Source: a virus. From it: 64,000 nucleotides of DNA. The first letter of the stretch is position 1. The number at the start of each line of letters is the position of its first letter. The stretch is from positions 1-64,000 of the IMG/VR virus record IMGVR_UViG_3300010885_046411. One strand, 5' to 3'. The notes below the pieces were generated by a model. It was not told where the DNA came from and ran no database searches. It saw only the letters and a program-made list of their open reading frames with translations. This document shows positions 1,736 through 17,204 of the stretch, piece by piece. The position numbers and the translations under genes are program-made.

Positions 1736-1744
1736 GTTAGTTGC

Positions 1745-2845: not shown

Positions 2846-2920
2846 GTTGGGGGCTTGTTAATTGGTTCTGTAAAGGTACGAAATGGGTCTTGAAAAACTG
2901 AAATCTTGCGTAAGGTTTTG

Positions 2921-3664
2921 TTAAAAAGGCAAAGGATGTTTTACATCTAAGTCTTTGTTGTCCTCTTGCTGCCGTGCAAACCTGTCAGCCCACTTATCTA
3001 TCTGTGGGTAGGCCTCTTGTAGTGCCTGCTCATATAAAGCAAGGTCTGGCATATCCTCTGCATCTAAGTCTAAAAAAACCCAGTGCATAAACAAATCGGC
3101 TTCAATTAGGTTGGGGTCATTGGTGTACCACACAAACAAGCCATACTTAGCCCCCATCATGCGGCAGTGAAAGCATAGTTGATGAGCATATACGGCATCG
3201 TATTCTAATAGACTAGGCCAATCTTCTACGGCAAAGCTATCTAAGAAACGGTCTATGCTAGTAGGGCATTTAATTTCTACACCTACAATTCCATCTTCAT
3301 CATAAGTTTCAAACCATCCATCAGGGCTGTCAAGCATCTTGCCCTTAATGATACACCTATGCTCATAGATAGGCTGCCCCATAGCCTCGCTGGCTGCCGC
3401 CCGTGCAAATGGCTCCATGTCGGTTCCATGCTGCATAGCCTGCTGCGCCCACCTTGTATCGTATCTAGGCACTGGCTTCCCCGTTACCTGCTTATAGGCT
3501 ATATCCCGACACCGTTTATCTCGTGCATCGGTAAACAACTCGCCTATAACGCTGCCCGTTATATCGGCGGCGTTTCTGGCAGCATACCATTCTTCGGTAT
3601 GCTGTGCGGGGCCAAGTATTGTACCCTCTAAGTGCGGGAACCCGTCTGTGTAAATGATGCTCAT
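2921..3664 (-). CDS. YqaJ/lambda-exonuclease family recombinase
   Basis: QHTEEWYAAR, ITGS, AMQHGTDMEP, SPDG, EIKCP, Y..Q motifs. Confidence 0.88.
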   Translation of the reverse strand: MSIIYTDGFPHLEGTILGPAQHTEEWYAARNAADITGSVIGELFTDARDKRCRDIAYKQVTGKPVPRYDTRWAQQAMQHGTDMEPFARAAASEAMGQPIYEHRCIIKGKMLDSPDGWFETYDEDGIVGVEIKCPTSIDRFLDSFAVEDWPSLLEYDAVYAHQLCFHCRMMGAKYGLFVWYTNDPNLIEADLFMHWVFLDLDAEDMPDLALYEQALQEAYPQIDKWADRFARQQEDNKDLDVKHPLPF

Positions 3665-3666
3665 GT

Positions 3667-4179
3667 CTAAAATGCGTTAAGAACTTTTTGAATATGATGC
3701 GCTTGGCACAAGGATTTTATTGCCTCTCCATCAACTTTTAAATAACGCACCTTGTCTTCGGGGAATTGATATTTACACCCGCCTGCCCCAATGTTTATCC
3801 AATAACGCCCTGTCCCTTGCTCTGCAAAGAACCCAACACTACCCTTCTCTTGCTTCCATTCTAGCGGCTTAATCGCCGCACGGATTTGGTCTAGGGTTGG
3901 CGTTTCTATGTTAATAAGATGTTGGGCAATAGGCTTACCTGCTGGTGTAAGATAGTCTTGAGACGATAATTTCAAGCCATGCTCTGCCAAAGCCTCGCGA
4001 ATTTCTCTTATCGTTTTTCGCCCTATATTTCTAAACCTCAACAAGTCGGCTTCTGAAAGATGTGCTACTTCGCTTGCCTTACCTTCCCATCCAAAAAAAC
4101 TTACAAGAGGGGTTCTAGCACGAGTGCTTAACCCTAAGTGTTTAATAAGCACAGTCTCAGGCTTAGATACATTCTCCAT
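3667..4179 (-). CDS. RNA polymerase alpha-CTD-like domain protein
   Basis: LGLSTRA...SEADLLRFRNIGRKTIREIREALAEHGLKL matches the RpoA C-terminal domain pattern. Confidence 0.75.
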   Translation of the reverse strand: MENVSKPETVLIKHLGLSTRARTPLVSFFGWEGKASEVAHLSEADLLRFRNIGRKTIREIREALAEHGLKLSSQDYLTPAGKPIAQHLINIETPTLDQIRAAIKPLEWKQEKGSVGFFAEQGTGRYWINIGAGGCKYQFPEDKVRYLKVDGEAIKSLCQAHHIQKVLNAF

Positions 4180-4181
4180 GT

Positions 4182-4412
4182 CTATACAGGCAGTTTAAGT
4201 GAGTAAAAAGGCTCCAGTGTCAGCCCATTGCGCACCCCGCTAAGGGATAGCACTCTGTTTTCTTGGGCATAGGTAAGCACGACCACATCGTCCATCTCGG
4301 CACATAGCCGTGTCTGGAGGATTAGCAGGCTTTCTTTCGTGTAAGCCTTTGTGAGCTTAAACTTTTTTGCCAACCCAATTAGGTAGGCATCTAGGGGCGA
4401 TGATGCAATCAT
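4182..4412 (-). CDS. hypothetical protein
   Basis: Probable start ATG 4412 (MIASSPLDAY), coupled by ATGA to the upstream small ORF. Confidence 0.6.
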   Translation of the reverse strand: MIASSPLDAYLIGLAKKFKLTKAYTKESLLILQTRLCAEMDDVVVLTYAQENRVLSLSGVRNGLTLEPFYSLKLPV

Positions 4413-4516
4413 AGTGAGATAAAAACAAGTAAAGTGGCTACGGAACCTATCACGGCCCCTGCAAACAGGCAACCCATGATAAGGCGAAAAATCTCTAAGG
4501 GGGTGTAGGGGGTCAT
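4409..4516 (-). CDS. 35-aa single-pass membrane peptide
   Basis: MTPYTPLEIFRLIMGCLFAGAVIGSVATLLVFISL; fills the operon gap exactly. Confidence 0.55.
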   Translation of the reverse strand: MTPYTPLEIFRLIMGCLFAGAVIGSVATLLVFISL

Positions 4517-4519
4517 TGG

Positions 4520-4852
4520 TTAGAGAGTCGGTGGCGGGGTTGCGTAACGCCAATAGCGATTGCCAGAATAGAAGTGCGTAAAATCTGTAGGGTCTGTGAA
4601 CATCACAAAACACCTATTTGAAAAATCGTCTCCGTCTATGACTTCAACAAGACAAAACGAATCTGGCATTGTGCCGCCCTTGCTAATCTTCACCCAAGGA
4701 TTCTTTTCAGGTTCGGGGGCATAAAGGCGGTCTAAGGCTTCGTCAAGTGCCTGCCACTCCGAATCGCTATTCCACGCCCTAGATGCAACGTATTCCACAG
4801 ATACAATAAGCGACATCAATTCTTCCTTTGTCGGTCTCGGTTGCTTGTCCAT
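4520..4852 (-). CDS. hypothetical protein
   Basis: Probable start ATG 4852 (MDKQPRPTKEE); NPWVKIS..MP motif common in phage proteins. Confidence 0.6.
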   Translation of the reverse strand: MDKQPRPTKEELMSLIVSVEYVASRAWNSDSEWQALDEALDRLYAPEPEKNPWVKISKGGTMPDSFCLVEVIDGDDFSNRCFVMFTDPTDFTHFYSGNRYWRYATPPPTL

Positions 4853-4853
4853 A

Positions 4854-5003
4854 TTAGTAAATGCGTTCGTCGGGGTTTTGGGATAGGTAGTCTTCCTCGG
4901 CCTGCTGCTGTTCAAGCCAGCAGCCCCACATATAGTCCTCATCCACATGGTCTGGGGCAGCAGGGGTATCGGAGGATTCAAAAGCTAATTCTTGTGCGCT
5001 CAT
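4854..5003 (-). CDS. 49-aa acidic peptide
   Basis: MSAQELAFESSDTPAAPDHVDEDYMWGCWLEQQQAEEDYLSQNPDERIY; first ORF after the promoter at 5029. Confidence 0.55.
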   Translation of the reverse strand: MSAQELAFESSDTPAAPDHVDEDYMWGCWLEQQQAEEDYLSQNPDERIY

Positions 5004-5028
5004 GGTTTGATTGGCTAATTGTACACCA

Positions 5029-5036
5029 CAAAAGTA
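5029..5036 (-). promoter_or_regulatory. Bacteroidota -7 promoter element TACTTTTG
   Basis: Exact TAnnTTTG upstream of the leftward recombination operon. Confidence 0.65.
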
Positions 5037-5257
5037 CCTAGCCCATACAGCCCAAATACTTGCTTTTTACAGAAAATCTTACATGGGCATCCCTTAGCCG
5101 CTTCTTTATCTTTGATGCCCCATTTGCCCATAACAGATACGACCTTAACCGTATATGCCTTACGCCGCCCACAAAAGCCATCACTTTAATACACCCACAG
5201 CCTTACATTATGCTTTTTTACTTTAGGCCATGCTTGTCTCAAGGCACCTCCCTATCC

Positions 5258-5265
5258 TACCTTTG
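5258..5265 (+). promoter_or_regulatory. -7 element TACCTTTG
   Basis: 6 nt upstream of the primase ATG at 5272. Confidence 0.6.
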
Positions 5266-5271
5266 ACATCT

Positions 5272-7275
5272 ATGGCCCTTTTTAATTCCTTTGAAGAGGC
5301 TGGCATTGATGCCACAAGTTTCAAAAAACAAGCACCTCACCATATCATTTGCCCTAAGTGCGGGGCCGACCGCAAGAAAGCCAAAGAGCCATCCCTACGT
5401 GTATGGCCCAAAGAGGGGCTATTTAAGTGCTATAACTGCGAATTTAGGGGCAAGATTAAAGACCCCAACTTTAATATAGTCTATCAGAAGCCCCACAAAA
5501 GCTATAAAAAGCCACACATACCCGAAACGCCGCCACCGCTTACCCCCGCCGCATCTACATGGTTAGCCTCTCGTGCTATATCAGAAGATACCGCCTATGC
5601 GTATGGCCTATACTCTACTGAAAGGTACTTTCCTTACCCCAAAGAATACGTTGCCTCTGATGGCACTACAAAAACCCGCGATAAGGGGCTATCCTCATGT
5701 ATAGCCTTCCCATACATGACCCCCGACTATGAGTGTCTATTTATTCAGTATCGGGATGCCATCAAGCGGTTTGTGGTTGAGGCCGATTGCCAACTAATAC
5801 CTTTTGGGATGCACATAGCCGCCCACTATGGCGGCTTAAAGGATAAGAACGACCGCCCGAACTCTGCCCTTATATGGACAGAGGGGCAACTAGATTGTAT
5901 GAGCCTCTATGAGGCTGGCTGTGGCAACGTAGTCTCTGTGCCGAATGGTTCGCAGCAGTCCCCTCAACTAGAATGGCTAGACGATGTACAGGACTTTGTA
6001 GGGCTATTTACAACGCATATCCTATGCCTTGACGATGATAGTGCAGGGCTGCCCCTAAAGAAGGAACTGATGCGCCGCCTCGGTGCCTCACGCTGCAAGG
6101 TTGTTCACTACCCCAAAGATGCTAAGGGGCAACACCAACTAGCCAAAGATGGCAGGCCCATGAAAGATGCCAATGCCGTACTCACTACGCTAGGGGCACA
6201 AGGGCTGAAAGACTTGATTGAAAAGGCCGACTTTGAGCCTATGGTTTCCTTTTACTCTAAGGAGTACCTGCTAGAGAAAATGATGCAGGTAGGCGATAGG
6301 GGTATAGATGGCGGGGCTACATTGGGCTGGCCTGAATTTGATGAGTATCTACGGTTTTCTTTTGAAAGGGTTACGGCCATTTCTGGCACCCCCAACGCTG
6401 GCAAGTCAGATTTTGTAGACCAAATTGCTATAATCTTAAACCGTAAGCATGGCTGGAAGGGTAGTTTTCATAGCCCTGAGAAAGACTACATCTTGCAACT
6501 AGGCACCCTTGCCGCCAAGCTAAATTCTAAGCCTTATTTCAACTTTGCGCATGTGCCAGGGGATAGACACTCGGTAGCCTATACGAAAGAAGAACAAGTG
6601 AAGGCGATAGATTACCTGACTGATAACTTTTATTTTTTCAATCCTACATCGGCGCAGCTAACCTACCAGCAAGTGATAGAGGACTGGCGCAGTTTGGTAC
6701 AGCGATATGGCATACGCTTTGCAGTGCTAGACCCGTACAACTACTTGCGCATGGATGAAAAAGACGAGGCTATGTTCATTAAGAAGATGCTGATTGCTTT
6801 CAAGGATGCGGCAAGGGAGTTGCAGATACACGTATTTATTGTGGCCCACCCCACTAAGGCAGGTAAGATAGACCCGAAGGGGGGCTTATATAGCATTGCT
6901 GGCTCGGCCCACTGGGCGAACTCGGTAGATAACTTTATATGGCTGTATAGGCACATAGGGGAAGGCAGAGGGCAGGGGTATGGGGATAATACAGAGGTGT
7001 TTGTCCACAAGCTACGGAATCAGCAATTTGAGGGTAGGCTTACGGGGGAAGATGGCATAATGCTGTCGTACAAAATGAATACTGGTGAGTTTGATGTAGC
7101 CAGCAACCGCCCTGCGATTGCGGCCCCGCCGCCGCCCAAGACTATGTACACCCCCAAGAATACCTATGGTAGGAATACGGGCGTAGTGTATGACCAAGAG
7201 CAAACCATAAAAGCATTTTATGCGGAGGTGCCACAGTTGGCGGCATCTTTAGATGCGGAGGGGTTGCCGTTTTAG
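5272..7275 (+). CDS. bifunctional Toprim primase / SF4 helicase (T7 gp4/Twinkle-like)
   Basis: Zn ribbon CPKC..CYNC; Toprim TEGQLD, SVPNG, DDDSAG, KDAN; Walker A GTPNAGKS; Walker B VLDPYN; VAHPTK. Confidence 0.93.
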   Translation: MALFNSFEEAGIDATSFKKQAPHHIICPKCGADRKKAKEPSLRVWPKEGLFKCYNCEFRGKIKDPNFNIVYQKPHKSYKKPHIPETPPPLTPAASTWLASRAISEDTAYAYGLYSTERYFPYPKEYVASDGTTKTRDKGLSSCIAFPYMTPDYECLFIQYRDAIKRFVVEADCQLIPFGMHIAAHYGGLKDKNDRPNSALIWTEGQLDCMSLYEAGCGNVVSVPNGSQQSPQLEWLDDVQDFVGLFTTHILCLDDDSAGLPLKKELMRRLGASRCKVVHYPKDAKGQHQLAKDGRPMKDANAVLTTLGAQGLKDLIEKADFEPMVSFYSKEYLLEKMMQVGDRGIDGGATLGWPEFDEYLRFSFERVTAISGTPNAGKSDFVDQIAIILNRKHGWKGSFHSPEKDYILQLGTLAAKLNSKPYFNFAHVPGDRHSVAYTKEEQVKAIDYLTDNFYFFNPTSAQLTYQQVIEDWRSLVQRYGIRFAVLDPYNYLRMDEKDEAMFIKKMLIAFKDAARELQIHVFIVAHPTKAGKIDPKGGLYSIAGSAHWANSVDNFIWLYRHIGEGRGQGYGDNTEVFVHKLRNQQFEGRLTGEDGIMLSYKMNTGEFDVASNRPAIAAPPPPKTMYTPKNTYGRNTGVVYDQEQTIKAFYAEVPQLAASLDAEGLPF

Positions 7276-7282
7276 AGGGTAC

Positions 7283-7310
7283 AAAAAGAGGGCTAGAAGC
7301 CCTCATTTTT
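7283..7310. terminator. bidirectional intrinsic terminator
   Basis: AAAAA-GAGGGCT-aga-AGCCCTC-ATTTTT between convergent genes. Confidence 0.75.
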
Positions 7311-7347
7311 GTAAAAATAATTAACACCTTTTAACGCAAAATTCACA

Positions 7348-7632
7348 CTATTTCTTTAAAGCCTCTAGGGCTTGGAATACTTGGTCTTTGGTTGCGCTGC
7401 CCTGAAAGAGCGTGTCGGTCAGGGCTACACAGCCTTGTTCTTTGAGCCACTTGCGTAACTTCATAAGACGTTGCAAGGATAGGGCCATGATGGAAGGGTA
7501 GGATAGGCCAGACTTGGCACAACGGCGTATAGATGAAGGGGTGGGGTTGCTCACCCTTATCATATATTCGGTGCTGTCTGCCTTCGGCTTGTAATGCTCA
7601 ATGCACTTAACTAGCGGGTCTTTGGGTGTCAT
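7348..7632 (-). CDS. hypothetical early protein
   Basis: Part of the leftward small-gene array. Confidence 0.65.
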   Translation of the reverse strand: MTPKDPLVKCIEHYKPKADSTEYMIRVSNPTPSSIRRCAKSGLSYPSIMALSLQRLMKLRKWLKEQGCVALTDTLFQGSATKDQVFQALEALKK

Positions 7633-7647
7633 GTTACGTGGTGGGGG

Positions 7648-7917
7648 TTAAAAGGGCTGAATTAAAAGGGTATTGGTACGCTTGTCAAAGAAGCCAACTT
7701 GGCTGTTGTAAAATGTCAGCAACTCCCGTGCAATCACGGTTAAGTGGCTGATAGGTAATTTGCCCGTCTCGTTTAGAGGTACGGGTATAGTGCCCTTTGG
7801 CAACGTCTGTGTGTAGCTTTGGCACTCGGTATGTGTGATGCGTAAAAGCATGGTTAGGCGGGTGGGGTTAAAGCGAACGGTTGTAATTTCGGTAATGCTC
7901 ATTTTGTTTGGCTGCAT
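7648..7917 (-). CDS. hypothetical early protein
   Basis: Array member. Confidence 0.6.
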   Translation of the reverse strand: MQPNKMSITEITTVRFNPTRLTMLLRITHTECQSYTQTLPKGTIPVPLNETGKLPISHLTVIARELLTFYNSQVGFFDKRTNTLLIQPF

Positions 7918-7996
7918 TGTAGGCTCTTAGCATAATAGCCAATAGCAGTGGTGAAAAGACTAGGGCCGTTGCCCAAAAGAGAAAGGTGTACATAGG

Positions 7997-8533
7997 CTAT
8001 GGGTGGGTGGCTTTAAAATGCTCCCAATCTTCGGCCTCACGCTCGGCCTTGTCTTTGGCATCTGAGTTTGCGGATTCAAGAAAGGCAAGCACATCCGTTT
8101 CCATGTCTGCCCAGCTTATATCCTTGCCCATTGCCGCCGTTAGTTGGGTGGCTATGGCATCGGCAATATAGTCTCCCAAATCGCCAGCCTCGTTAAGGGC
8201 TTCAAATTCGGGGGCTGCGCCGCCGCAAAGGTCTTCCAAAAGTTCTTCAGCCCCGTCATAAAAAGCAAGCACAAGGCTCTCGTATTCAATGTGCCTGTGG
8301 GTTGGCACGTCTAGTATGCTCTCAATCACAGATGAACTATGACCGCCGCCAGCAAGCGAATAAGTATCTACGGCCTCTATGCGAGCATAGTCGTTAAAGG
8401 CAGTTGTGTACCATTGGCCTTCCTTGCCTTTGATAATGAGTTTAAATTTGATGCCGTTTGTTGTGCGAACGGTTTGGCCTGAGCGCAGTTGCTCTTGGGT
8501 GGGGTAAATGGTTGGGGGTATTTGCGCGTTCAT
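7997..8533 (-). CDS. hypothetical protein with acidic C-terminus
   Basis: 178 aa; D/E-rich second half. Confidence 0.7.
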   Translation of the reverse strand: MNAQIPPTIYPTQEQLRSGQTVRTTNGIKFKLIIKGKEGQWYTTAFNDYARIEAVDTYSLAGGGHSSSVIESILDVPTHRHIEYESLVLAFYDGAEELLEDLCGGAAPEFEALNEAGDLGDYIADAIATQLTAAMGKDISWADMETDVLAFLESANSDAKDKAEREAEDWEHFKATHP

Positions 8534-8557
8534 GGGGTGGGGTGTTAAGTGGATGAA

Positions 8558-8938
8558 TTAAGAAAGAATGGCTACGGCCTGCATAAGCGGTGCGCCAGAC
8601 CATTTGCCTAGCCTCACTGCCTTCCCTAGTGGGGCTAATGCTTCACTGGCTACGGCCTCGGTTACAATTCTACGCTCTACTAGAGAGCGCACAAACCGTA
8701 ATTCTAGGTGTCTAGCGGCTGCGCTGTTAAACGCATTGCCGTTAAAGGCAGTTGTATATACCTTACACTTGGCTGCGGCCTGTATGGCCTTTGCTAGGGT
8801 AGAGGTGCTAGGGTCTTGTTCGCATCGTTCGGATGCCTTGCGCCATTCTTGCATGGCGGGTTCGTATGCACATGCCTGCACGGCCTCTGTGTAGAGCGTG
8901 TCTAGGATTGCTTCGGCTTGGTCTGCTTGGATGGTCAT
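8558..8938 (-). CDS. hypothetical early protein
   Basis: Array member. Confidence 0.65.
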   Translation of the reverse strand: MTIQADQAEAILDTLYTEAVQACAYEPAMQEWRKASERCEQDPSTSTLAKAIQAAAKCKVYTTAFNGNAFNSAAARHLELRFVRSLVERRIVTEAVASEALAPLGKAVRLGKWSGAPLMQAVAILS

Positions 8939-8941
8939 AGC

Positions 8942-9145
8942 TTAGTCTTCTGAAATATCGTCTGGGTGCGTTACGTTGTAACCTTCTTGCTCTAAGAAAT
9001 CAACGGCAAGAGAGCGCATATCGAAGTATGCCTGCCTTTCTGGGGGCGATAATTCATTTGGGCTTTTATCCCCCAAACTATCTACACAGTCTCGGAAGTC
9101 TGCAAGGGTGTTTTGCCAACGGCAATAAGACATATTGTGTGCCAT
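8942..9145 (-). CDS. small phage protein
   Basis: NMSYCRWQNTLADFRDC N-terminus resembles a widespread phage small-protein family. Confidence 0.7.
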   Translation of the reverse strand: MAHNMSYCRWQNTLADFRDCVDSLGDKSPNELSPPERQAYFDMRSLAVDFLEQEGYNVTHPDDISED

Positions 9146-9146
9146 A

Positions 9147-9284
9147 TTATCTGTGGGTTGCGCCCCGATACACGGGGCAAGTGGGTGAATAAAGGGGTTG
9201 AAAGGCGGTGCAGCTTGCTAGGGCAACGGCGGCGGCTAGGATGGCCGCGTACATGGTGAGGCGGTATATTGTGCGCGGTTGCAT
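9147..9284 (-). CDS. 45-aa lipoprotein
   Basis: MQPRTIYRLTMYAAILAAAVALAS-C-TAFQPLYSPTCPVYRGATHR; lipobox LASC; fills the gap exactly. Confidence 0.65.
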   Translation of the reverse strand: MQPRTIYRLTMYAAILAAAVALASCTAFQPLYSPTCPVYRGATHR

Positions 9285-9286
9285 TG

Positions 9287-9499
9287 CTAGTTGCGCTTTT
9301 GTTGAATGTTGCTCATGCTTGAAATACTTGGGTTGTATCGGTGATACTTACCAATAGGACTTTGAACTAATGCCCGACCAAAACAAACATCTAGCAATGT
9401 GCCATAATAGTTTGTAAGTTGGCCCGATACGGTTTGGTGCCATTCAATCTCTTTGCCGATAAGGCTTTCTAAAAGCTCAATTTTGTCTAGCGTACTCAT
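9287..9499 (-). CDS. hypothetical early protein
   Basis: Array member with ATGA coupling. Confidence 0.6.
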   Translation of the reverse strand: MSTLDKIELLESLIGKEIEWHQTVSGQLTNYYGTLLDVCFGRALVQSPIGKYHRYNPSISSMSNIQQKRN

Positions 9500-9717
9500 C
9501 TGGTTTGGAGTTTGAAATTGGGTGCAGGGTTAAGGTGCATAAGTTTTGTGGTGCTGCCCTCTGGCTCTATCCAAACCTCCAGCGATAGGTCTCTGGCTAT
9601 CTTGTATGCCTCGGCGGTTGCTTGCTTGAAGTCTCCGTAGGGCTTAGACTTGAAGCCTTGATTTGTGGGTATTACAATCGAGTACATAATATTTAGGCGA
9701 ATACGCCCATTTTGCAA
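9496..9717 (-). CDS. hypothetical early protein
   Basis: Array member; start uncertain. Confidence 0.55.
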   Translation of the reverse strand: MQNGRIRLNIMYSIVIPTNQGFKSKPYGDFKQATAEAYKIARDLSLEVWIEPEGSTTKLMHLNPAPNFKLQTR

Positions 9718-10112
9718 AGGGTTAGAATACGGGCAAGGCCAGTGTCGGTAATGTCGTCAGTCGCTACGTCTCTGTGTGAGCCATCCTCCCAAAACCCTGC
9801 CCACACTTTATTCATTTCAGGGTGGTATTTGACATTGCAACACGAAACAGCCCTTCCATCTTTTAGGGTGATTAGAAAGTCGTCTAGCCCCATCTGCTTC
9901 ATGCTAAACAGGTCGGGGTAAGCAAGGGCATACGATTGCTCCAACCCCAATGCAGCCCCAACACTAAGGAATTTAATAGGGCCGCGCTGGTTTGGGCTTT
10001 TGTATAGCATAGACCTTAGCTCTAAGTAGTCCCTACCCCGTTGGTGTAGCGTTTCTAGCCATGTGCTAGTTAGGTGCGCGTATTCTGGTGATAGTTGCTG
10101 TTTGTTTTCCAT
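9693..10112 (-). CDS. hypothetical early protein
   Basis: Array member. Confidence 0.65.
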   Translation of the reverse strand: MENKQQLSPEYAHLTSTWLETLHQRGRDYLELRSMLYKSPNQRGPIKFLSVGAALGLEQSYALAYPDLFSMKQMGLDDFLITLKDGRAVSCCNVKYHPEMNKVWAGFWEDGSHRDVATDDITDTGLARILTLCKMGVFA

Positions 10113-10113
10113 G

Positions 10114-10683
10114 TTAAAAAATGAATGTGTCGGTGGGTGGGTATGAGCCGTTACTTTCTGCCAAGCCCCAAGTGCATAGGTAGTCCCAAAGGGCTACATT
10201 TTTGCAGTCGTCGGGCAAGTCGTCAAAAGATATTTTTTTACCTTGCTTGGGGTATTGAGATGTGCTTATCTCCCCGTGTTGGCAAAAACCATGTGGAGCA
10301 AATGGTGTCGCCGACATAGCCACATACTCTGTGGTGTTACGTTCACGGCCTGCATAGCGGCCTGTGAACCATACAGTATAGAGGTCTATGGTTTGGCCGC
10401 CGTTATCTCGTATATCCATGTATCTTGGCTCACGGGTGCCCTCTTTTAGCAAAGACCTTACAGCCTTTTCAAAGGTCTTGCGCTGGTATCGGTGCCAAAT
10501 GGTTCCGTATGAAACATATACATGGGCCTTGGTATAGGCAATGCTGCCATACGTGCCAAATAGTGTATTTGCCCACCACTTAGAGCCTTCTGGCAAGGGG
10601 CCTGCCCATATTACTGCTTGCCCGTATGCGCTCACGCGCATAGCCAAGGGCGGGTATTTCTCTAAGTCTTTTAGTGTTTCCAT
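10114..10683 (-). CDS. phage protein
   Basis: DNGGQT.D.YTV...MS..PF.PHGFCQHG...GKKI.F.DLP motif seen in phage early proteins. Confidence 0.7.
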   Translation of the reverse strand: METLKDLEKYPPLAMRVSAYGQAVIWAGPLPEGSKWWANTLFGTYGSIAYTKAHVYVSYGTIWHRYQRKTFEKAVRSLLKEGTREPRYMDIRDNGGQTIDLYTVWFTGRYAGRERNTTEYVAMSATPFAPHGFCQHGEISTSQYPKQGKKISFDDLPDDCKNVALWDYLCTWGLAESNGSYPPTDTFIF

Positions 10684-10742
10684 GCGTTAAGGGGTGGTGT
10701 TAAAAGGTAAAAAGCGGTTGCCTGTACACCGCAAGGTAGGGG

Positions 10743-11033
10743 TTATTTTTTAGGGAAAGCAACTTGGGAAAAAAGTTTATCAATATCTTCTTGACACATA
10801 TAGCGGTTGCCATCTTCTTCCATCAAGGTAGCATAGGTTAGCCTGCCCCAAGTAGAGCAGTTGGCATAAGCAATTTTTTTGCCTAGCTTTTTCATAACCG
10901 CCGCTTTGATGTTTGGCGTAGACATGGCACGACAAACTTCTTTGCCGTTTTTGTCATAAAAGAAAACAGTTGCGCCCCAGATAGAACCAAGTGAGGCTAA
11001 TTTGTTAGAAGATGAGCTGCGAAGCGTTTTCAT
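10743..11033 (-). CDS. hypothetical early protein
   Basis: Follows the promoter at 11056. Confidence 0.65.
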   Translation of the reverse strand: MKTLRSSSSNKLASLGSIWGATVFFYDKNGKEVCRAMSTPNIKAAVMKKLGKKIAYANCSTWGRLTYATLMEEDGNRYMCQEDIDKLFSQVAFPKK

Positions 11034-11055
11034 GTTGTTGTCCCGTTTGGTAGTA

Positions 11056-11063
11056 CAAAGGTA
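11056..11063 (-). promoter_or_regulatory. -7 element TACCTTTG
   Basis: Exact consensus in an intergenic gap; inverted repeat GCGTAA-N4-TTACGC at 11095-11110 upstream. Confidence 0.65.
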
Positions 11064-11130
11064 TAGGGCCGTATGGCGGCGTTGATTGAAATATGCGTAA
11101 TTACTTACGCGGATATTACATGGTGGGTTA

Positions 11131-11367
11131 TTAAAAAGCTAGTAATACGGCTGTCTGCACGGCTGGGTACTGGTGGCCTCGGTAATCGGCTGCCCATGCC
11201 TGCAACTCCTCTAGGCTGTCAAATACTTGGTAACTATGTAGGTCTCTTAGGTCTGCATCTGTTTGCGCTATCCTAGACTGATAGGCAAAGGGTGCGGACT
11301 TGTGGGGTATCTCGCATACCCATTGGCCGCGTTTAACGGCTAGGTCGGTGGTATTGTCTGTGTTCAT
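11131..11367 (-). CDS. hypothetical early protein
   Basis: Array member. Confidence 0.6.
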   Translation of the reverse strand: MNTDNTTDLAVKRGQWVCEIPHKSAPFAYQSRIAQTDADLRDLHSYQVFDSLEELQAWAADYRGHQYPAVQTAVLLAF

Positions 11368-11379
11368 GGTTACGGGGTG

Positions 11380-11601
11380 TTAGGTGGTTCGCTTTGCGTG
11401 TCTGAAAAGCATAGAGGAAATTTTGCCCACAATCCCCCCTCTGGTTGATAGGTCTGAGAAAATTTGCGTTGCTATGGGCTTGCCTACGCCACTTACTAAG
11501 TCTTTGTAAACGGTGTAGGGCTTATCGGTGTTATCCGATATAATGTTTGCCATCTGGTCTAATAGGGCCGCTTTTCTATCGGCTTGCGTATGTGTTTGCA
11601 T
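11380..11601 (-). CDS. hypothetical early protein
   Basis: Array member. Confidence 0.6.
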   Translation of the reverse strand: MQTHTQADRKAALLDQMANIISDNTDKPYTVYKDLVSGVGKPIATQIFSDLSTRGGIVGKISSMLFRHAKRTT

Positions 11602-11615
11602 GGTGGTAGGGTGGG

Positions 11616-11918
11616 TTAAACGTGGGCTAGTTGGTTGGCTACGGTTGCGGCACGTAGGGCTGCCTGCTTACCTGTCTGTAAGCCACTCCAGCCATTAACA
11701 GGCGGGTTGTAAAGGGCATGTATATGCCCATTCCCTTGCAACCCCCATGCGTTAAGGCTCTGCCCCTCGGCTAGTAATTTGGCTGCATGGGTGCGAAAGG
11801 CGGCAATATCTGCATAGCCGTACTGTGCTAAATTACCGTTATGGTTGCGCATGAATTTTTGGTAAAAATTTGCATCTTCATGCAAGCCGTTTACGGTTTG
11901 GTTGTGGCAAGTTGTCAT
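11616..11918 (-). CDS. hypothetical early protein
   Basis: Likely ATG 11918; the ORF-track GTG start lies inside the RNA repeat. Confidence 0.65.
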   Translation of the reverse strand: MTTCHNQTVNGLHEDANFYQKFMRNHNGNLAQYGYADIAAFRTHAAKLLAEGQSLNAWGLQGNGHIHALYNPPVNGWSGLQTGKQAALRAATVANQLAHV

Positions 11919-11926
11919 TTTTAAAG

Positions 11927-12002
11927 GTGTTAAAATAGAGCGGTATTGCTCTGAGCGCACATCTAGCAGCGAACTAGGTAAGCCCTACGGCTTGTGTGCG
12001 CT
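11927..12002 (-). ncRNA. structured leader RNA, copy 1 (three-way junction with T-loop plus hairpin)
   Basis: 66/76 nt identical to 13562-13637; every stem difference is compensatory. Confidence 0.7.
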
Positions 12003-12011
12003 TGGGTTAGT

Positions 12012-12197
12012 CTATTTGTAGTATTGCCTATCTGAGCCATCTGGCATAATTAGTAGAACTTTATAACCTTTATTGGCTAATTGTTTAGCCCTATCTTTTG
12101 CGTCCTTTTCATTTGTGAAGCTATGTTCATAGCTATCTGAAAATACACTTTTTGTGAATTTCACAGTGAATTTCACAGTGAATTTTTGAGTGTTCAT
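12012..12197 (-). CDS. hypothetical early protein
   Basis: Contains a 12-bp tandem repeat encoding KFTV-KFTV-KFT. Confidence 0.6.
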   Translation of the reverse strand: MNTQKFTVKFTVKFTKSVFSDSYEHSFTNEKDAKDRAKQLANKGYKVLLIMPDGSDRQYYK

Positions 12198-12221
12198 GCT
12201 TGGTAGGGGTTGGGCTGGGGT

Positions 12222-12839
12222 TTAGATTTGTTCGCCGTTCTCTGTAAATTCGTACTCGTTGGCTTCTAAAGACTCAGATACGGCCTCGTCGCTTGTAAGG
12301 TCTTCGTATGCGGCTTTTAGGTCTTTATACAGTTGCTTGCAAAGGGTGCGATATTCTTGGGTTGCCTCATCTGCTATCTTATCGCAAATGGCATACAAAT
12401 ACGCTTCTAGGTTTGGCCAGTGCCCGTATGGCATGCCGTCTTTCAGGTCTTCAAAAACATCTCCAGCGTCTATATAGCGCGTTCTTTCGTGGCAGTATTG
12501 ATTAAACCATAGGTTTTTGGCTATGCCTACCTTGTTTCTTGCGTATGCTTCGCATATCTTAGCAAAGCGGGTGCCTTTATAGTTGTCTTCAACCCATTTT
12601 TTTAGGTCAAAAGTGCCCTCAAAGCACGCCCCGTCCCCTTGCGAATTGAAGCCAGAAAAAAGAATATCTGAGGGCTCAAAATAGCCGTATTCTTTGAGCG
12701 TTTCTCTGAACCCTTCATATACTGAGTCCCACCATTCGCCGTATTCTACGTTAAAATAGCGGTGCTGCTCAATAGCTTTTTGTTTTGCCTCTTCTGAAAG
12801 CTCGGCAAACATATAGGCGGTTGTTTCAATAGTTCTCAT
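12222..12839 (-). CDS. acidic phage early protein
   Basis: MRTIETTAY.FAELSEEAKQKAIE...FSGF.SQGDGA.F...EANEYEFTENG; a family often found in mobile-element leading regions. Confidence 0.75.
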   Translation of the reverse strand: MRTIETTAYMFAELSEEAKQKAIEQHRYFNVEYGEWWDSVYEGFRETLKEYGYFEPSDILFSGFNSQGDGACFEGTFDLKKWVEDNYKGTRFAKICEAYARNKVGIAKNLWFNQYCHERTRYIDAGDVFEDLKDGMPYGHWPNLEAYLYAICDKIADEATQEYRTLCKQLYKDLKAAYEDLTSDEAVSESLEANEYEFTENGEQI

Positions 12840-12840
12840 C

Positions 12841-12948
12841 TTATCGGGTTGCCACTTGCGCGGCGGGTTTGGTGGTGAAAAGGTGGCGGTTTGAATGTAT
12901 AGCCCACACTAGGCAGGCTATTAGTAAAAGGGTGGATAGGGTGCGCAT
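12841..12948 (-). CDS. 35-aa membrane/secreted peptide
   Basis: MRTLSTLLLIACLVWAIHSNRHLFTTKPAAQVATR; fills the gap exactly. Confidence 0.5.
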   Translation of the reverse strand: MRTLSTLLLIACLVWAIHSNRHLFTTKPAAQVATR

Positions 12949-12952
12949 GGGT

Positions 12953-13267
12953 TTAGGCGAGTATTAAGGCCGTTTCCTCTTTGCTTATACGCGCTGCATG
13001 GTATAGGGCTGTGCCTATGTCGGTGTAGGCTTGGAACTCACCTTCGGTATCAATAGCCCCGCTATGCAGAGACCTGCGCAGGCTGTATTTGCGTGTATGG
13101 CCTTCGCCAAATGTGCATTTTTCAGAAGACACAAACAGCGTTGAGCCTTCTGAGCCTGCAAATGTTTTTTCACTGAAACGCGAGGCAAAAAAGCGCAGCG
13201 CACCTTTGTCAAAAAAGTGGTGCCCGATTAGCTTGTTAGCCCATTTAATCTCTTGTAATGTTCTCAT
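12953..13267 (-). CDS. phage protein (DUF7447-like)
   Basis: GHHFFDKGALRFF.SR...FVSSE...R.Y..R motif. Confidence 0.65.
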   Translation of the reverse strand: MRTLQEIKWANKLIGHHFFDKGALRFFASRFSEKTFAGSEGSTLFVSSEKCTFGEGHTRKYSLRRSLHSGAIDTEGEFQAYTDIGTALYHAARISKEETALILA

Positions 13268-13331
13268 AACATAGGCCCGTATTTTCGCACGGGCGGGCGG
13301 GTAAGGGTAAGGGGTGAAAAGGTGTAAAGTG

Positions 13332-13553
13332 TTAGGCGGTTAGACGGTTGTTTATTAACCTGTGGCAAGCTCTGGCCATATCCCATGGCGTTTGGTAGTC
13401 TGGGTTAGGGTGAATGTATCCGACATCTTGTAACCTTAGAAACAGGTTGCGCGATTGAGATAGCATTTTGATTGCACTTGCGTTATTCTTGCTGCGGGTG
13501 TAAGAGCCTGCAAAAAGACTAACCGCCTTACTGTACATTCGGTCGTTATTCAT
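13332..13553 (-). CDS. hypothetical early protein
   Basis: Likely ATG 13553, downstream of RNA repeat copy 2. Confidence 0.6.
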   Translation of the reverse strand: MNNDRMYSKAVSLFAGSYTRSKNNASAIKMLSQSRNLFLRLQDVGYIHPNPDYQTPWDMARACHRLINNRLTA

Positions 13554-13561
13554 TGGTAAAA

Positions 13562-13637
13562 GTGTTAAAATAGAGCGGCATTGCTCTGAGCGCACATACG
13601 GTAACGAACCGTGTAAGCCCTATGGCTTGTGTGCGCT
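13562..13637 (-). ncRNA. structured leader RNA, copy 2
   Basis: Second copy of 11927-12002; contains the T-arm-like hairpin ACGG-TTCGTTA-CCGT. Confidence 0.7.
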
Positions 13638-13647
13638 GGGTGGGCTG

Positions 13648-14169
13648 TTAGTAGTTTACATAGTTTTGTATGGTTTCATAGGCCCATTCGGGGTACATGG
13701 TATGCCAGTCAGCACCTTGTAAATAGTCTAAATAGCTATACTTGATTATGCCTGAACGTATAATTTGCAGCCGTTCGCGCCTATCCATTTGCGCCCATGC
13801 TTCGTGCATCTCTTCAATTTCACGTTCAAAATAGTCATCTTCATCCAAACTTGGATAGTCTTCTATTTCTGACAAGATGGCTTCACATTCTGCCAACTTT
13901 GGGCTATCTTCACGTATTAGGATAGCATCTACATGCCCGCACGCCCAATGGCCAAAACAGGCTGTAAATTCTGTATCTGTTTCCGTCGTAGTTATACCTA
14001 AACGGTCTAAAATTGTTTCGTAGTTACTGTTTAGCAGTATGCCGCTATCACCGGTTCTGCTATACATTACAAAGCAATTATCATATTGCTCTCCCATGTA
14101 GCTATCGGGATGTTTCCATCTCTTAGCTTCAAGCAAGGGGTATTGTGTAGGTGTTTCAATCGTTGTCAT
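13648..14169 (-). CDS. acidic phage protein
   Basis: SNY...FGHWACGHVD...L..I.DYP.LDEDDY.E.E motif. Confidence 0.7.
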   Translation of the reverse strand: MTTIETPTQYPLLEAKRWKHPDSYMGEQYDNCFVMYSRTGDSGILLNSNYETILDRLGITTTETDTEFTACFGHWACGHVDAILIREDSPKLAECEAILSEIEDYPSLDEDDYFEREIEEMHEAWAQMDRRERLQIIRSGIIKYSYLDYLQGADWHTMYPEWAYETIQNYVNY

Positions 14170-14194
14170 GTTCGTGTTGGTGTTGGGTTGAGGG

Positions 14195-14401
14195 TTAGAC
14201 GGTTACGGGTTCGTTCCAAATACATTTGGCATCTTCTGCAAGTACATAGGCGCGGAACTTAGAACGGGCCTCTCTTAGACCACAATAGGCGTATGCCTGT
14301 TTGTACTCTACACATTTGTAGGTAGTGCGACAAATGATACAAGATAAGCCACCAAAAGTCCTTACCTTTTCTGTGCTTATGTCAAACTGTGCTTTTGTCA
14401 T
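14195..14401 (-). CDS. hypothetical early protein
   Basis: Likely ATG 14401. Confidence 0.55.
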   Translation of the reverse strand: MTKAQFDISTEKVRTFGGLSCIICRTTYKCVEYKQAYAYCGLREARSKFRAYVLAEDAKCIWNEPVTV

Positions 14402-14423
14402 GTTGGTTAGATGGTTAGAGGGT

Positions 14424-14612
14424 TTATTGATTAACGTGACGCGTTTTAATTGTTTGCACATTGTACCCAGCACAGGCCAGCCGTTCTACAACAGCAGCGA
14501 CGGCTAGTACCTTAGACGTAGCTTGTATGTGTTCTATACAAAACCAAACACCCCATTTGCCCCAAGCGTCAGAGTAGCCAGCGTGCGTAACAGCGAACCA
14601 AAAATTTTTCAT
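14424..14612 (-). CDS. hypothetical early protein
   Basis: Likely ATG 14612; first gene after the promoter at 14661. Confidence 0.55.
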   Translation of the reverse strand: MKNFWFAVTHAGYSDAWGKWGVWFCIEHIQATSKVLAVAAVVERLACAGYNVQTIKTRHVNQ

Positions 14613-14660
14613 GTTGAAGATGATAATAGGGTAGCACCATTGCCACCCTGTTTGATACTT

Positions 14661-14668
14661 CAAATATA
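14661..14668 (-). promoter_or_regulatory. -7 element TATATTTG driving the early array
   Basis: Exact consensus with TTTG about 16 nt upstream; palindrome TTACGCGTAA at 14711-14720. Confidence 0.65.
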
Positions 14669-15204
14669 GAACGCCCGTTTTACGCAAATACTTAAATAAC
14701 AGCGAAAAACTTACGCGTAACTTACATAGGTTAATTTATTTATAGATACAACGAAACTCTATTACATACACCCAAACCGTTGTATATCATGCCTACCTAA
14801 ACATGTACAGAATAACGTACATACATTCTACTAACAAACTGCCACCACAGCCCAACACATACCACTGCCAAATAGGCACTATGCCATAAATCAAACTGAA
14901 CGGCCCCAACTCTTACAAGGCACCCAGACCGCATAGGTAGCCCTTAGATGCGGATATATGTATGGGGTAAGTATCTCCATAGGCTAGCCGATACGGGTAA
15001 CATATACGATAGTAGGAGATAGTTAGCAGATAGACTAGTTATGGGAGTCCTACTCTTTCGCCTCTCTCTCCCCCTTTCCCTCACCCCTCTCTATCCTATT
15101 TAACATAACGAAGCCCGTTTCCTTGAAACGTACGTACCATAGCCCTACCTAAATCCGTACAGCCAAACGTAGGAGCCTTCATTATGTTAAGTACACCCAT
15201 AGAA

Positions 15205-15283
15205 TGTATCTATTTAGATACAACCATCGTCGGACTGTATCTATTTGGATACATGCACCCCGACTCTTGGATACATGCACCCC
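15205..15283. repeat. palindromic, iteron-like repeats
   Basis: TGTATCTA-TT-TAGATACA (15205), TGTATCTATTTGGATACATGCACCCC (15236), TTGGATACATGCACCCC (15267). Confidence 0.7.
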
Positions 15284-16029
15284 GCCCCTTTGCTCTTAAG
15301 GGCAAGGGATACGCGGTAAGCGTAAGCCCTGCACCCGTTGCCCCGCCTATTACACCCCGACCCCACCCCCTCACACCCTTTCCGTCGGGGGATTGCTCGG
15401 CAGGCGGGGGTGTATATATGTTACTCCGCCCATTCTGACTATGCGCTACGGTAAACCCTCCTGCCACTCTGAGTTTGCTGCTACGAATAACATTCTGTCT
15501 GCACGTATGCTTTACGCTGCTATATGTACTGCTTTCGTTTCATATTGACGGGTATTTGCTACGGCTCCGTATTTGTTAGCCTCGGTGGGAAACAAGCTGC
15601 ATTCTGTAGGAATGTACGCGTACTTTGTAGCAGGGTGGTTAAGCCGTGTAGGTTTTAGACCGCTTCGGTTGTTATACGGCTACGCGCTTGTAGCGCTTGC
15701 CTACAACCTAGCTTAGTAGTGTTTTTTTTGTGATTAGCGCGCGGTGGTAGCGCCCTGCGCGTACACAAGCGTGCGTGCTGGTAGTTTGTATGTTTTGGCG
15801 CGTATTGTAGCGTAGCGTACAATTAAGCGCCGTATTCGGTGTGTCTGTGGTAATATACCGCTGCTAGGTTATAGGTATCGGCGGGTTTGGCTCCGCGCTG
15901 TTGGCGCTTGCCTCACCGCCTATTGTATATAGGGAAAGGTATGCGCTATTGGGGAGCGTATGCGGGTAGAGAGAGGATATGGCTAGGATATAGTTATATT
16001 CCCCCCCTGTTAAAATACTTAAATATTTT

Positions 16030-16242
16030 AATCTATGCTAATCATACTGTATGGTTTAGTATGACCGTGCATGGGTAGTAATGTGGGGGAACCGAAGTAT
16101 GAAGGTAAAGGATTTGAACCTTGTTTCATTACTGTATAACACTGGGCGCATTGACCTGAACCAAGCCACGTGTTATGTAGGCAAGTGTAGTAGTATCTGG
16201 GATGCACTATAAGATGGCATACGGAGTATTCCGTCCACTACT
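16030..16242 (-). ncRNA. candidate structured ncRNA
   Basis: Own TATCTTTG promoter, no ORF, multiple stems, AAGG-TTCAAAT-CCTT T-loop. Confidence 0.5.
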
Positions 16243-16246
16243 GCAA

Positions 16247-16254
16247 CAAAGATA
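16247..16254 (-). promoter_or_regulatory. -7 element TATCTTTG
   Basis: Exact consensus pointing into an ORF-free region. Confidence 0.6.
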
Positions 16255-16333
16255 ATACATACCTAAGGTTATTTCCAAATCTGCGTACATCTTTTTTTTT
16301 CCAAATTAGTTGTTGCGATAATAAAAAGTGTTG

Positions 16334-16375
16334 TACCTTTGTCAAGTGCTACAAGGCTCTCCCTTCGAATCATAA
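16334..16375 (+). promoter_or_regulatory. promoter TACCTTTG plus tnpB-derived 9-codon leader
   Basis: 30/36 nt identical to the 5' end of the mini-tnpB (26564-26529, minus strand). Confidence 0.6.
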
Positions 16376-16378
16376 ATT

Positions 16379-16636
16379 ATGGAAACCAACACCTTCAAAG
16401 AGTCTGCTCTAATGCAGATGCTAACAACGGCATGTAATGAGGCTGTGTTGTCTTTTCACAACGCAGTAGCCGTTAGCCCTAAATTATATGATTGGGTAAG
16501 GTCAATGCAGCCCACTAACACAGACCCAGAAAGGGTCGGCTTTATGGGTGTTCATGTAATTCTTGCAGAAAGCCTGCCCGAATATTCTTGCATACCATGT
16601 CTTCTAAGTAAAGACTTAGACGCTATCCCCTCATAG
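16379..16636 (+). CDS. hypothetical protein
   Basis: First gene of the rightward operon. Confidence 0.65.
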   Translation: METNTFKESALMQMLTTACNEAVLSFHNAVAVSPKLYDWVRSMQPTNTDPERVGFMGVHVILAESLPEYSCIPCLLSKDLDAIPS

Positions 16637-16638
16637 CC

Positions 16639-16851
16639 ATGCACAATAAAACAACAGCAGAACGCCTAGAGGCTATTGCCACCAGTGCTATGCAAGGCAT
16701 ATTGGCAAGTGATTCTATTTACGCACAGCATGTAATGCGAGAGGGTGGTGATTGCCGCAAAAAAGAGATAGTATCTGCTAGTTTTACGCTAGCCAAAATG
16801 CTGCTTGAAAAAATAGACAACGACACAGCCGACCCAAACAACCAGCAATAA
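16639..16851 (+). CDS. small phage protein
   Basis: RLE.IA..AMQGILA...A..LL motif. Confidence 0.7.
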   Translation: MHNKTTAERLEAIATSAMQGILASDSIYAQHVMREGGDCRKKEIVSASFTLAKMLLEKIDNDTADPNNQQ

Positions 16852-16856
16852 CGCCT

Positions 16857-17204
16857 ATGTTTACTGCCAAAGAAATCCAAGACGACCTAAGCGGCTTTCT
16901 GTCGCTAAATAATGCCGTACAATCTATTGTAACGCTGCTAGAGTATCAAGTAGCCGATGCTCTTAATAGCATATTTGGCATAGCAGAGATAGAGATTGCT
17001 AACATAGCCGACGACTATGGTCTTGCTACTGTAGATGCAGATGGCTACCGTATATGTACGCCAGAACTACAAACCGCCATAGAAAAAGAACTTGATGAGG
17101 CTGGCTATTGGTATGAGTTTAATCTTATTTCCATAAGCAGCATAGATGTGCTTGAGCCATCGCACCAGCGTTTAACCATCTCCACCCTTGACAAGCCCGA
17201 ATAG
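16857..17204 (+). CDS. hypothetical acidic protein
   Basis: Operon member. Confidence 0.65.
   Translation: MFTAKEIQDDLSGFLSLNNAVQSIVTLLEYQVADALNSIFGIAEIEIANIADDYGLATVDADGYRICTPELQTAIEKELDEAGYWYEFNLISISSIDVLEPSHQRLTISTLDKPE

Follow-up and report, generated by a model that had tools for sequence, protein, structure and literature searches.

A duplicated spacer between small minus-strand genes

We analysed the first 64,000 bases (the window) of the 72,231-bp virus record IMGVR_UViG_3300010885_046411, which carries direct terminal repeats, and describe here a structured spacer that occurs twice between small genes on its minus strand. A repeat search within 10–16 kb returned one strong direct-repeat family, consisting of two 91-nt copies at 11915-12005 (copy 1) and 13550-13640 (copy 2) with 85% identity and a spacing of 1635 nt. 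The initial annotation had reported two 76-nt copies (11927-12002 and 13562-13637), each ending 8 nt before an ATG. These intervals lie inside the 91-nt repeats, and on the minus strand they indeed stop 8 nt short of ATG 11918 and ATG 13553; the likeness between the copies was found to continue past them, up to the ATG itself. Each copy makes up the entire stop-to-ATG gap between minus-strand genes and lies upstream of an unrelated small ORF: copy 1 starts 9 nt past the TAG of a 61-aa ORF and ends at the ATG of a 100-aa ORF, and copy 2 starts 10 nt past the TAA of a 173-aa ORF and ends at the ATG of a 73-aa ORF (Table 1).

The 100-aa and 73-aa proteins encoded downstream of the copies showed no similarity to each other. 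The 100-aa ORF is an orphan with no homologue except itself. The sole relative of the 73-aa ORF is a variant identical at 72 of 73 residues (I28V) on a 15,630-bp contig; with this variant on record, both the 73-aa ORF and its ATG are supported. The spacer sequence was found nowhere else in the genome. The outer-arm pattern GCGCACA-N25-50-TGTGCGC matched twice in the window, versus 0.01 matches expected from shuffled sequences, and also twice over the full length of the 72,231-bp record. Neither blastn-short (remaining matches ≤13 nt) nor a 35-nt pattern allowing ≤3 mismatches revealed a third copy, complete or partial, in the genome. A covariance model built from the two copies (R1), run on the window with filters off, retrieved only the two copies at 118 bits; the next-best match (18.4 bits) was the reverse strand of copy 2.

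The record represents an uncultured freshwater phage of Flavobacteriia-phage type. Its terminase is 23–25% identical to those of Flavobacterium, Cellulophaga, Tenacibaculum and Maribacter phages (87 records, all <60%), and its start regions are C/A-rich and lack Shine-Dalgarno motifs, which fits a Bacteroidota host. Genes from ~15.2 kb down to base 1 are on the minus strand and include a Toprim/AAA primase-helicase, an Erf-like protein and an exonuclease; terminase, portal and a 3889-aa ORF are on the plus strand. Small, mostly orphan genes followed by the Erf-like, exonuclease and primase-helicase genes constitute an early/middle-arm layout, and the genes around the two copies are presumed early from this layout, their position and the gene content. 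Four of the 10 neighbouring small proteins match PHROG families, all of unknown function, and a 104-aa DUF7447 protein is the only one of these neighbours to pass the Pfam cut-off.

Table 1. Window coordinates of the two spacer copies, their predicted structural parts and the ORFs that follow them
Feature	Position	Strand	Remarks
Cassette copy 1, whole spacer	11919..12011	-	TAG 12014-12012 (61-aa ORF) to ATG 11918 (100-aa ORF)
Copy 1 three-way junction	11954..12002	-	P1 12002-11995 with 11961-11954 (8 bp)
Copy 1 P2 hairpin	11993-11980	-	5 bp, loop GUAG
Copy 1 P3 hairpin	11977-11963	-	5 bp, loop UCGCU
Copy 1 P4 hairpin	11937..11952	-	AGAGC-AAUACC-GCUCU
Copy 1 unpaired A/U-rich leader, 18 nt	11919..11936	-	ends at start codon
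ORF after copy 1, 100 aa	11616..11918	-	exact product recorded as called gene
Cassette copy 2, whole spacer	13554..13647	-	TAA 13650-13648 (173-aa ORF) to ATG 13553 (73-aa ORF)
Copy 2 three-way junction	13589..13637	-	P1 13637-13630 with 13596-13589
Copy 2 P2 hairpin	13628-13615	-	loop AUAG
Copy 2 P3 hairpin	13612-13598	-	ACGGU/ACCGU, loop UCGUU; 3 compensatory pairs relative to copy 1
Copy 2 P4 hairpin	13572..13587	-	AGAGC-AAUGCC-GCUCU
Copy 2 unpaired A/U-rich leader, 18 nt	13554..13571	-	
ORF after copy 2, 73 aa	13332..13553	-	unrelated to 100-aa ORF

Predicted fold of the minus strand

Both copies are predicted to fold on the minus strand into three helices, P1, P2 and P3, arranged as a three-way junction, followed by a hairpin (P4), 18 unpaired A/U-rich nucleotides and the AUG. 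P1 (AGCGCACA/UGUGCGCU) contains 8 bp, P2 (AAGCC/GGCUU) 5 bp with a 4-nt loop, P3 5 bp with a 5-nt loop, and P4 (AGAGC/GCUCU) 5 bp with a 6-nt loop. The unpaired spacing is tight, with 1 nt between P1 and P2, 2 nt between P2 and P3, 1 nt between P3 and the 3' strand of P1, and 1 nt before P4. Minimum free energies (MFE) were −29.3 and −29.1 kcal/mol for copies 1 and 2, respectively. Relative to dinucleotide shuffles, the minus-strand z-scores were −4.44 and −3.72, with equally stable shuffles in 0/200 and 1/200 cases, versus only −0.95 and −1.65 for the plus strand. The same fold was obtained in both MFE structures and in the centroid of copy 2, while the copy 1 centroid added two weak pairs in the leader; RNAalifold gave an identical structure. 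The duplicated minus-strand three-way junction directly before start codons that had been proposed from inspection of the letters was thus reproduced, helix by helix, by MFE and centroid calculations. The junction and P4 were retained in 321-nt contexts, and in the 321-nt fold of copy 2 the last 18 nt before the AUG remained unpaired.

Other roles for such a fold were considered and rejected. A riboswitch-like aptamer does not fit junctions of just 1, 2 and 1 nt and the lack of an Rfam match, and a hammerhead or other small ribozyme does not fit the lack of a conserved core and, again, of an Rfam match. An N-terminal extension of the downstream ORFs, starting from an in-frame GTG inside P1, was rejected as well: the three differences between the copies in that stretch would all alter residues, the GTG is buried in the helix, and the recorded product downstream of copy 1 begins at the ATG.

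Differences between the copies preserve the predicted pairs

The copies differ at 10 positions within the 66-nt structured core. Six of these differences form three compensatory P3 pairs (C-G/A-U, U-A/C-G and A-U/G-C), one converts the P3 closing pair from U-G in copy 1 to U-A in copy 2, and three fall in the loops of P2, P3 and P4. The initial annotation had given the same total and the same three compensatory pairs; its remaining four differences, all of which it placed in loops, include the one that belongs to the P3 closing pair. None of the 23 pairs is broken in either copy. When 10 random substitutions were introduced into the core by simulation, all 23 pairs stayed intact in 216 of 600,000 trials, and at least three compensated double changes occurred in 213 of 600,000 (a first run had given 65/200,000 for each of the two outcomes). 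A two-row shuffle control of the covariation was weak (45/500). The U-G pair of copy 1 is allowed in minus-strand RNA and would be an A-C mismatch on the opposite strand; this single pair and the strand asymmetry of the z-scores are hints that the functional form is sense-strand RNA. The G/A position in the P2 loop and the C/U position in the P3 loop covary from G-C to A-U, which, coming from two sequences only, is no more than a hint of a tertiary pair between the two loops.

Comparison with tRNA and known RNA families

The initial annotation had likened the P3 loop to a tRNA T-loop and had proposed, as one of several possible roles, that the element is a tRNA mimic. The T-loop/tRNA-mimic premise received no support from ARAGORN, Rfam, the loop sequence or the 3' end. 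ARAGORN found 0 tRNA-like genes in the window and 0 in the other 8,231 bases of the genome. Rfam 15 gave 0 matches at gathering score over the 64-kb window, the tRNA clan included, and at E≤10 the sense strand of both elements was unmatched in a 2-kb search as well as in searches with 121 nt around each copy. The sole Rfam match at E≤10 under either copy was a 10.9-bit fragment of the snoRNA sR14 on the opposite strand of copy 2, in keeping with the earlier remark that the family was not one the annotator recognised. In a T-loop, which has 7 nt, the first position is U and the fifth is A, and the two form the U54-A58 reverse Hoogsteen pair. The corresponding 7-nt loops here read UUCGCUG and UUCGUUA, with C or U at the fifth position; moreover, loop positions 1 and 7 can pair (U-G or U-A) and are paired by the energy model, which leaves a 5-nt loop. 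P3 is set off from the 3' strand of P1 by one extra unpaired A, and the sequence 3' of P1, (U)CAGAGC, goes on to form P4, with no CCA end and no D or anticodon arm. At the level of sequence the resemblance to tRNA is limited to G-UUCG.

Elsewhere on the minus strand, near 16109-16123, AAGG-TTCAAAT-CCTT is a far better T-arm look-alike than P3; ARAGORN and Rfam gave nothing there beyond two chance-level matches (E 2.5–3.4). At minus-strand positions 13048-13126, inside the 104-aa DUF7447 ORF, the Rfam model of the c-di-GMP-I-UAU riboswitch aptamer matched over its full length with 27.7 bits (E 0.0029 in the 2-kb search); this is below its gathering score of 65.9 and probably due to chance. At the 5' end of the 61-aa ORF (12012-12197), the 12-nt unit GTGAATTTCACA (plus strand) forms ~2.5 tandem repeats (12153-12190), which also gave a chance miRNA-like Rfam match.

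Search for relatives and for comparable cassettes

Exact-pattern scans with four parts of the element found no match in viral, metagenome or genome contigs. A blastn 'distant' search of 50,697 phage records returned nothing with the 2.7-kb region and nothing with the 95-nt element (E≤1). With R1, the best match among 23 loci around distant homologues of a neighbouring gene for a 205-aa protein was at 754-841 of locus L003 (17 bits, E 0.013) and lacked P3, and there were 0 matches in 23 whole virus records and 0 in 7 further loci searched with filters off. R1 was built from two near-identical copies and has a strong sequence bias, so that diverged structural relatives could be missed. A descriptor of structure only (three-way junction, hairpin and ATG) was uninformative, giving 72 matches in 239 kb versus 45–57 in mono-shuffled sequence. 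A full-text literature search combining intergenic repeats, stem-loops and early genes with Bacteroidetes found no papers.

Judged by sequence similarity, the phage itself is a singleton with no close relative in the collections searched: the 205-aa neighbour gene has a best non-self relative that is 40% identical, and no close terminase relative was found in viral contigs. Parts of the region are contained in three sequencing runs, all of DNA. Contigs of run X2 covering parts of both copies are identical to the window; short contigs of run X3 show a few differences at 14568-14812 and 15274-15400 and cover neither copy. A second strain of this phage is present in public data, as seen from the I28V variant of the 73-aa ORF and the divergent X3 contigs.

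Distant relatives, namely L003 and nine further loci, were also examined for repeats of their own. L003, an IMG/VR relative with a 68,404-bp record, has two families of repeated spacers at 750-6470, each ending at a start codon. The first is present in four copies and consists of a palindromic hairpin and a C-rich leader; the second, with six to seven copies, has a CCTA-GAAA-TAGG hairpin placed 9 nt ahead of the ATG. A CTAAATGTGCAA motif lies upstream in both families, which may be a promoter or leader system of that phage. Another locus (L014) has two 51-nt cassettes (4-54 and 1134-1184; 96% identical) that end at an ATG and contain a small hairpin, TATATTTA (one mismatch from the -7 consensus discussed below) and a C-rich leader. 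A third (L015) has a 49-nt repeated hairpin at 501-549 and 2180-2228, the copies of which differ by pair-preserving changes. The cassettes of these three loci are not demonstrably homologous to the element described here. Portable leader or spacer cassettes do recur in such phages.

Transcriptional context

The Bacteroidota -7 box has the consensus TAnnTTTG. Exact TAnnTTTG sequences occur on the minus strand at 16247, 15164, 14661, 12806 and 11056 (overall, 68 observed versus 53 expected), and hairpin-plus-T-run sequences lie near 11.1 and 10.7 kb. This arrangement of sequence signals suggests one transcription unit from ~15.2 to 11.1 kb that contains both copies. Since the copies lie between the candidate boxes at 15164/14661 upstream and 11056 downstream, both are probably internal to one unit. 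Neither copy has a TAnnTTTG box inside it. The best 8-mers common to both have two mismatches to the -7 box, at the first and last consensus positions, and a sigma-70-type promoter scan found nothing in either copy. The terminator scan flagged neither copy, which are absent from the 12 sites reported for 7000-17000. By its sequence P4 does not fit an intrinsic (rho-independent) terminator, which would be a GC-rich hairpin running straight into a U-tract: three of its pairs are G-C, and in the AUUUUAAC behind it 4 of 8 positions are U, against a scan threshold of 5. A GC-rich hairpin is found at 13294-13275, 40 nt past the ORF served by copy 2.

A candidate RNA-level leader cassette

The interpretation we lean towards, while rating it somewhat below an even chance, is that the element is a duplicated, portable, RNA-level intercistronic leader cassette of ~95 nt inside a leftward, presumed-early multi-gene transcript. 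The spacer is duplicated, it is placed exactly from stop to start, its fold is strand-specific, and its P3 has diverged with preservation of structure. We favour an RNA-level leader because the whole spacer is duplicated before unrelated ORFs, has no promoter or terminator consensus and lies in the probable interior of a polycistronic unit, and because it is stable specifically on the sense strand and has diverged only in structure-neutral ways. We infer that the element is transcribed, and that cleavage and effects on stability and translation may follow. The junction and P4 would punctuate the polycistronic mRNA, acting as a barrier that shields the 3' side of the upstream cistron from exonucleases; alternatively, they would cap the downstream segment after an endonuclease cut in the adjacent AU-rich single strand. 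The same structure might insulate the Shine-Dalgarno-less start region, keeping it open whatever lies upstream, and two unrelated ORFs would thereby get the same translation context. The cassette could have spread as a stop-to-start unit by recombination, like the regulatory cassettes of other phages.

Several points weigh against this interpretation. P1, P2 and P4 are invariant between the copies, which leaves comparative support for P3 only, and the invariance could be explained by a recent duplication or gene conversion as well as by selection. The P3 change could itself be one block replacement and not a set of independent compensated changes; the simulation described above would then overstate its significance. 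Compensation also fits a DNA hairpin as well as an RNA hairpin. Set against all 95-nt minus-strand windows (mean −21.4, sd 6.3), a folding energy of −29 kcal/mol is lower by only ~1.2 sd and is unexceptional genome-wide, so what carries the case is the composition-corrected stability together with the comparison of the copies, and not the energy as such. When copy 1 is folded in its 321-nt context, its leader pairs with coding sequence upstream, and the start would therefore not be strictly 'always open'. The coding score of the 73-aa ORF is weak (0.10 versus 0.18, the 5th percentile of true frames). Finally, no homologue that could show conservation by selection over time was found in any collection searched.

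The motif, though real, is modest; it belongs to no Rfam family, and by analogy its kind is already known, namely regulatory spacers that recur in the early regions of phages. With two copies in one uncultured phage without relatives, and one helix with comparative support, it is of limited general importance. Transcript organisation and processing are nevertheless almost unknown in Bacteroidota phages, whose hosts do without Shine-Dalgarno-led initiation and have unusual promoters, and a cassette that gives two unrelated orphan genes one structured leader would be a small, testable model, with possible insight into mRNA punctuation and gene-module shuffling beyond the paradigms of T4 and T7. 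Recognition of the junction by an enzyme, if demonstrated, would make it a new RNA motif.

Relation to described phage elements

The closest described kind, by analogy, is the promoter-early stem-loop (PeSL) cassette of T4-type phages. PeSLs extend from stop to ATG over ~100 bp, contain a stable stem-loop and lie beside ORFans, in stretches dense with small orphan genes; what defines them is a consensus host promoter. They can flank gene blocks as direct repeats, so that recombination between them can shuffle genes, and they mediate such shuffling (PMC2839356; PMC4122927). The element matches PeSLs in its stop-to-ATG extent, its ORFan neighbourhood and its duplication. It differs in lacking a Bacteroidota -7 box, that is, the host promoter by which PeSLs are defined, in being present in two copies only, and in having a three-way junction plus hairpin where PeSLs have one stem-loop. 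Phage lineage and host phylum are unrelated as well, and any terminator or promoter activity of the element is putative.

In function, the closest analogue would be the RNase III sites between the early genes of T7. These are structured elements repeated between cistrons of one early polycistronic mRNA, which provide the upstream message with a protective 3' hairpin and determine the 5' context in which the next gene is read. The element is similarly structured and repeated between cistrons. T7 sites, however, are long, irregular hairpins in which double-stranded RNA is near-continuous over about two helical turns (~20 bp), whereas the helices here have 8, 5, 5 and 5 bp, and the longest possible coaxial stack (P1 with P2 or P3) is short for RNase III at 13–14 bp. 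The putL and putR sites of HK022 are likewise two structured RNAs in early transcription units of a phage, with stems supported by differences between the copies, and the element resembles them in both respects. The put sites are antitermination RNAs that consist of two adjacent stem-loops, follow closely on an early promoter and exert their effect on RNA polymerase in cis; the element differs in its fold and in its position relative to promoters and start codons, and there is no evidence of terminators for it to overcome. With tRNA and tRNA-like structures the element has in common a closing helix of 7–8 bp and a G-C-closed hairpin whose loop starts with UUCG, and it differs from them by the lack of a fifth-position A, a D or anticodon arm and CCA, and by the additional junction base.

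Alternative explanations

Several of these comparisons correspond to alternative explanations of the element. One that we consider unlikely, yet would keep in view, is that the element is a true PeSL analogue, a composite of terminator or attenuator and promoter. On this view, read-through arriving from upstream would be damped by the junction and P4 with the AUUUUAA that comes after them, and transcription would begin anew from a degenerate -7-like box (CACCTTTA or CACTTTTA) located 3 nt ahead of the ATG, giving an mRNA that is leaderless or nearly so. P4 is indeed followed by AUUUUAA, the 3' end of the cassette is like the TACCTTTA-type boxes upstream of other genes of this phage, and the repeated cassette of L014 has TATATTTA, which departs from the consensus at one position. 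In its extent from stop to ATG, its duplication and its ORFan neighbours the element also agrees with the PeSL description (PMC2839356). It would, however, be a promoter with no TAnnTTTG in either copy, the best common 8-mers deviating at two positions, the first and last of the consensus, with neither TTG nor TTTG ~20 nt upstream of the -7-like box and with an empty sigma-70-type scan within the copies; and it would be a terminator on which the scan was silent, its tail having 4 T in 8 against the threshold of 5. A different effect on transcription, in which the element would act in cis as an RNA that modifies the transcribing RNA polymerase, by HK022 put-type antitermination past the hairpins that come next in the operon, appears very improbable. 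It shares with put the finding of two structured copies with compensatory differences in an early-type operon, which is how putL and putR were recognised, and the GC-rich hairpin at 13294-13275, 40 nt after the ORF of copy 2, could be a target. Yet the fold is a three-way junction plus hairpin and not two stem-loops, the copies lie directly before start codons 1.6 kb apart within one unit and not just past promoters, the downstream hairpins are poor terminators by the U-tract rule of the scan, and neither sequence nor model matched anything known.

That the element acts at the level of DNA, as hairpins or cruciforms, as a protein site (operator, recombination or replication) or as a miniature inverted-repeat mobile element ended by the P1 arms, is in our estimate quite unlikely. 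P1 does look like 8-bp terminal inverted repeats around palindromes, compensatory change is equally compatible with DNA hairpins, and the direct copies flank a 1.6-kb block of 4–5 small genes, as expected if recombination between copies shuffles genes. The likeness between the copies, however, passes the P1 arms and runs through P4 and the leader to the ATG, so the duplicated unit comprises the entire spacer, and inverted repeats do not mark its limits. A mobile element is further at odds with the lack of a third copy or fragment in the genome or elsewhere in the collections searched, and a sequence-specific protein site would keep its half-sites, which P3 has exchanged for another complementary pair. 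Both the z-scores and the single wobble pair point to the transcribed strand. We give little credence to a tRNA-like module in which P1 is the acceptor stem, P3 the T-arm and P2 a replacement for the other arms, cut by RNase P and/or RNase Z so as to punctuate the mRNA or release a small RNA, possibly a decoy. ARAGORN found 0 tRNA genes in window and remaining genome, the elements alone were unmatched on the sense strand by the tRNA clan or any other Rfam family at E≤10, the fifth loop base is C or U and not A, the energy model shrinks the loop to 5 nt, a 1-nt bulge separates P3 from P1, and CCA is lacking. These stand against the acceptor/T-arm-like topology, with a P1 of 7–8 bp and a G-C-closed P3 whose loop begins with UUCG, and against the agreement of GGTTCGTTACC in copy 2 with 9 of the 11 positions of the tRNA B-box consensus; RNase P is also known to cut some intercistronic regions and phage RNAs. 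A broader form, similarly improbable, is that the junction is a new, minimal class of phage mRNA punctuation read by a structure-specific host enzyme. One candidate would be RNase P or RNase Z, for which the junction would be an armless acceptor/T-arm mimic, and this may be likened to the tRNA punctuation of mitochondrial transcripts. If it were true, a Bacteroidota phage would cut its early polycistronic RNA at defined points, and a stable RNA of ~50 nt might be released with a role of its own, such as a decoy. The remaining probability falls to explanations outside those considered here.

Other features of the window

Between the divergent gene arms lies an ORF-poor spacer of ~1.3 kb (window 14900-16400), with short tandem and direct repeats at 15202-15288; the T-arm look-alike near 16109-16123 also falls within it. 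The 3889-aa ORF on the plus strand (31530-43199) has no Pfam or PDB sequence match and just two local PHROG matches, one to a family of unknown function and one to a 'ParB C-terminal domain' stretch. A simple regex search of this ORF found no DFDID-like motif of a virion RNA polymerase, an identity that would have favoured a reading with phage-specific promoters. The minus-strand gene at 10743-11033 is apparently a self-contained unit, with an exact TACCTTTG box upstream (11056-11063) that is preceded by a hairpin, and, just past the gene, a GCGGT...ACCGC hairpin followed by TTTTT.

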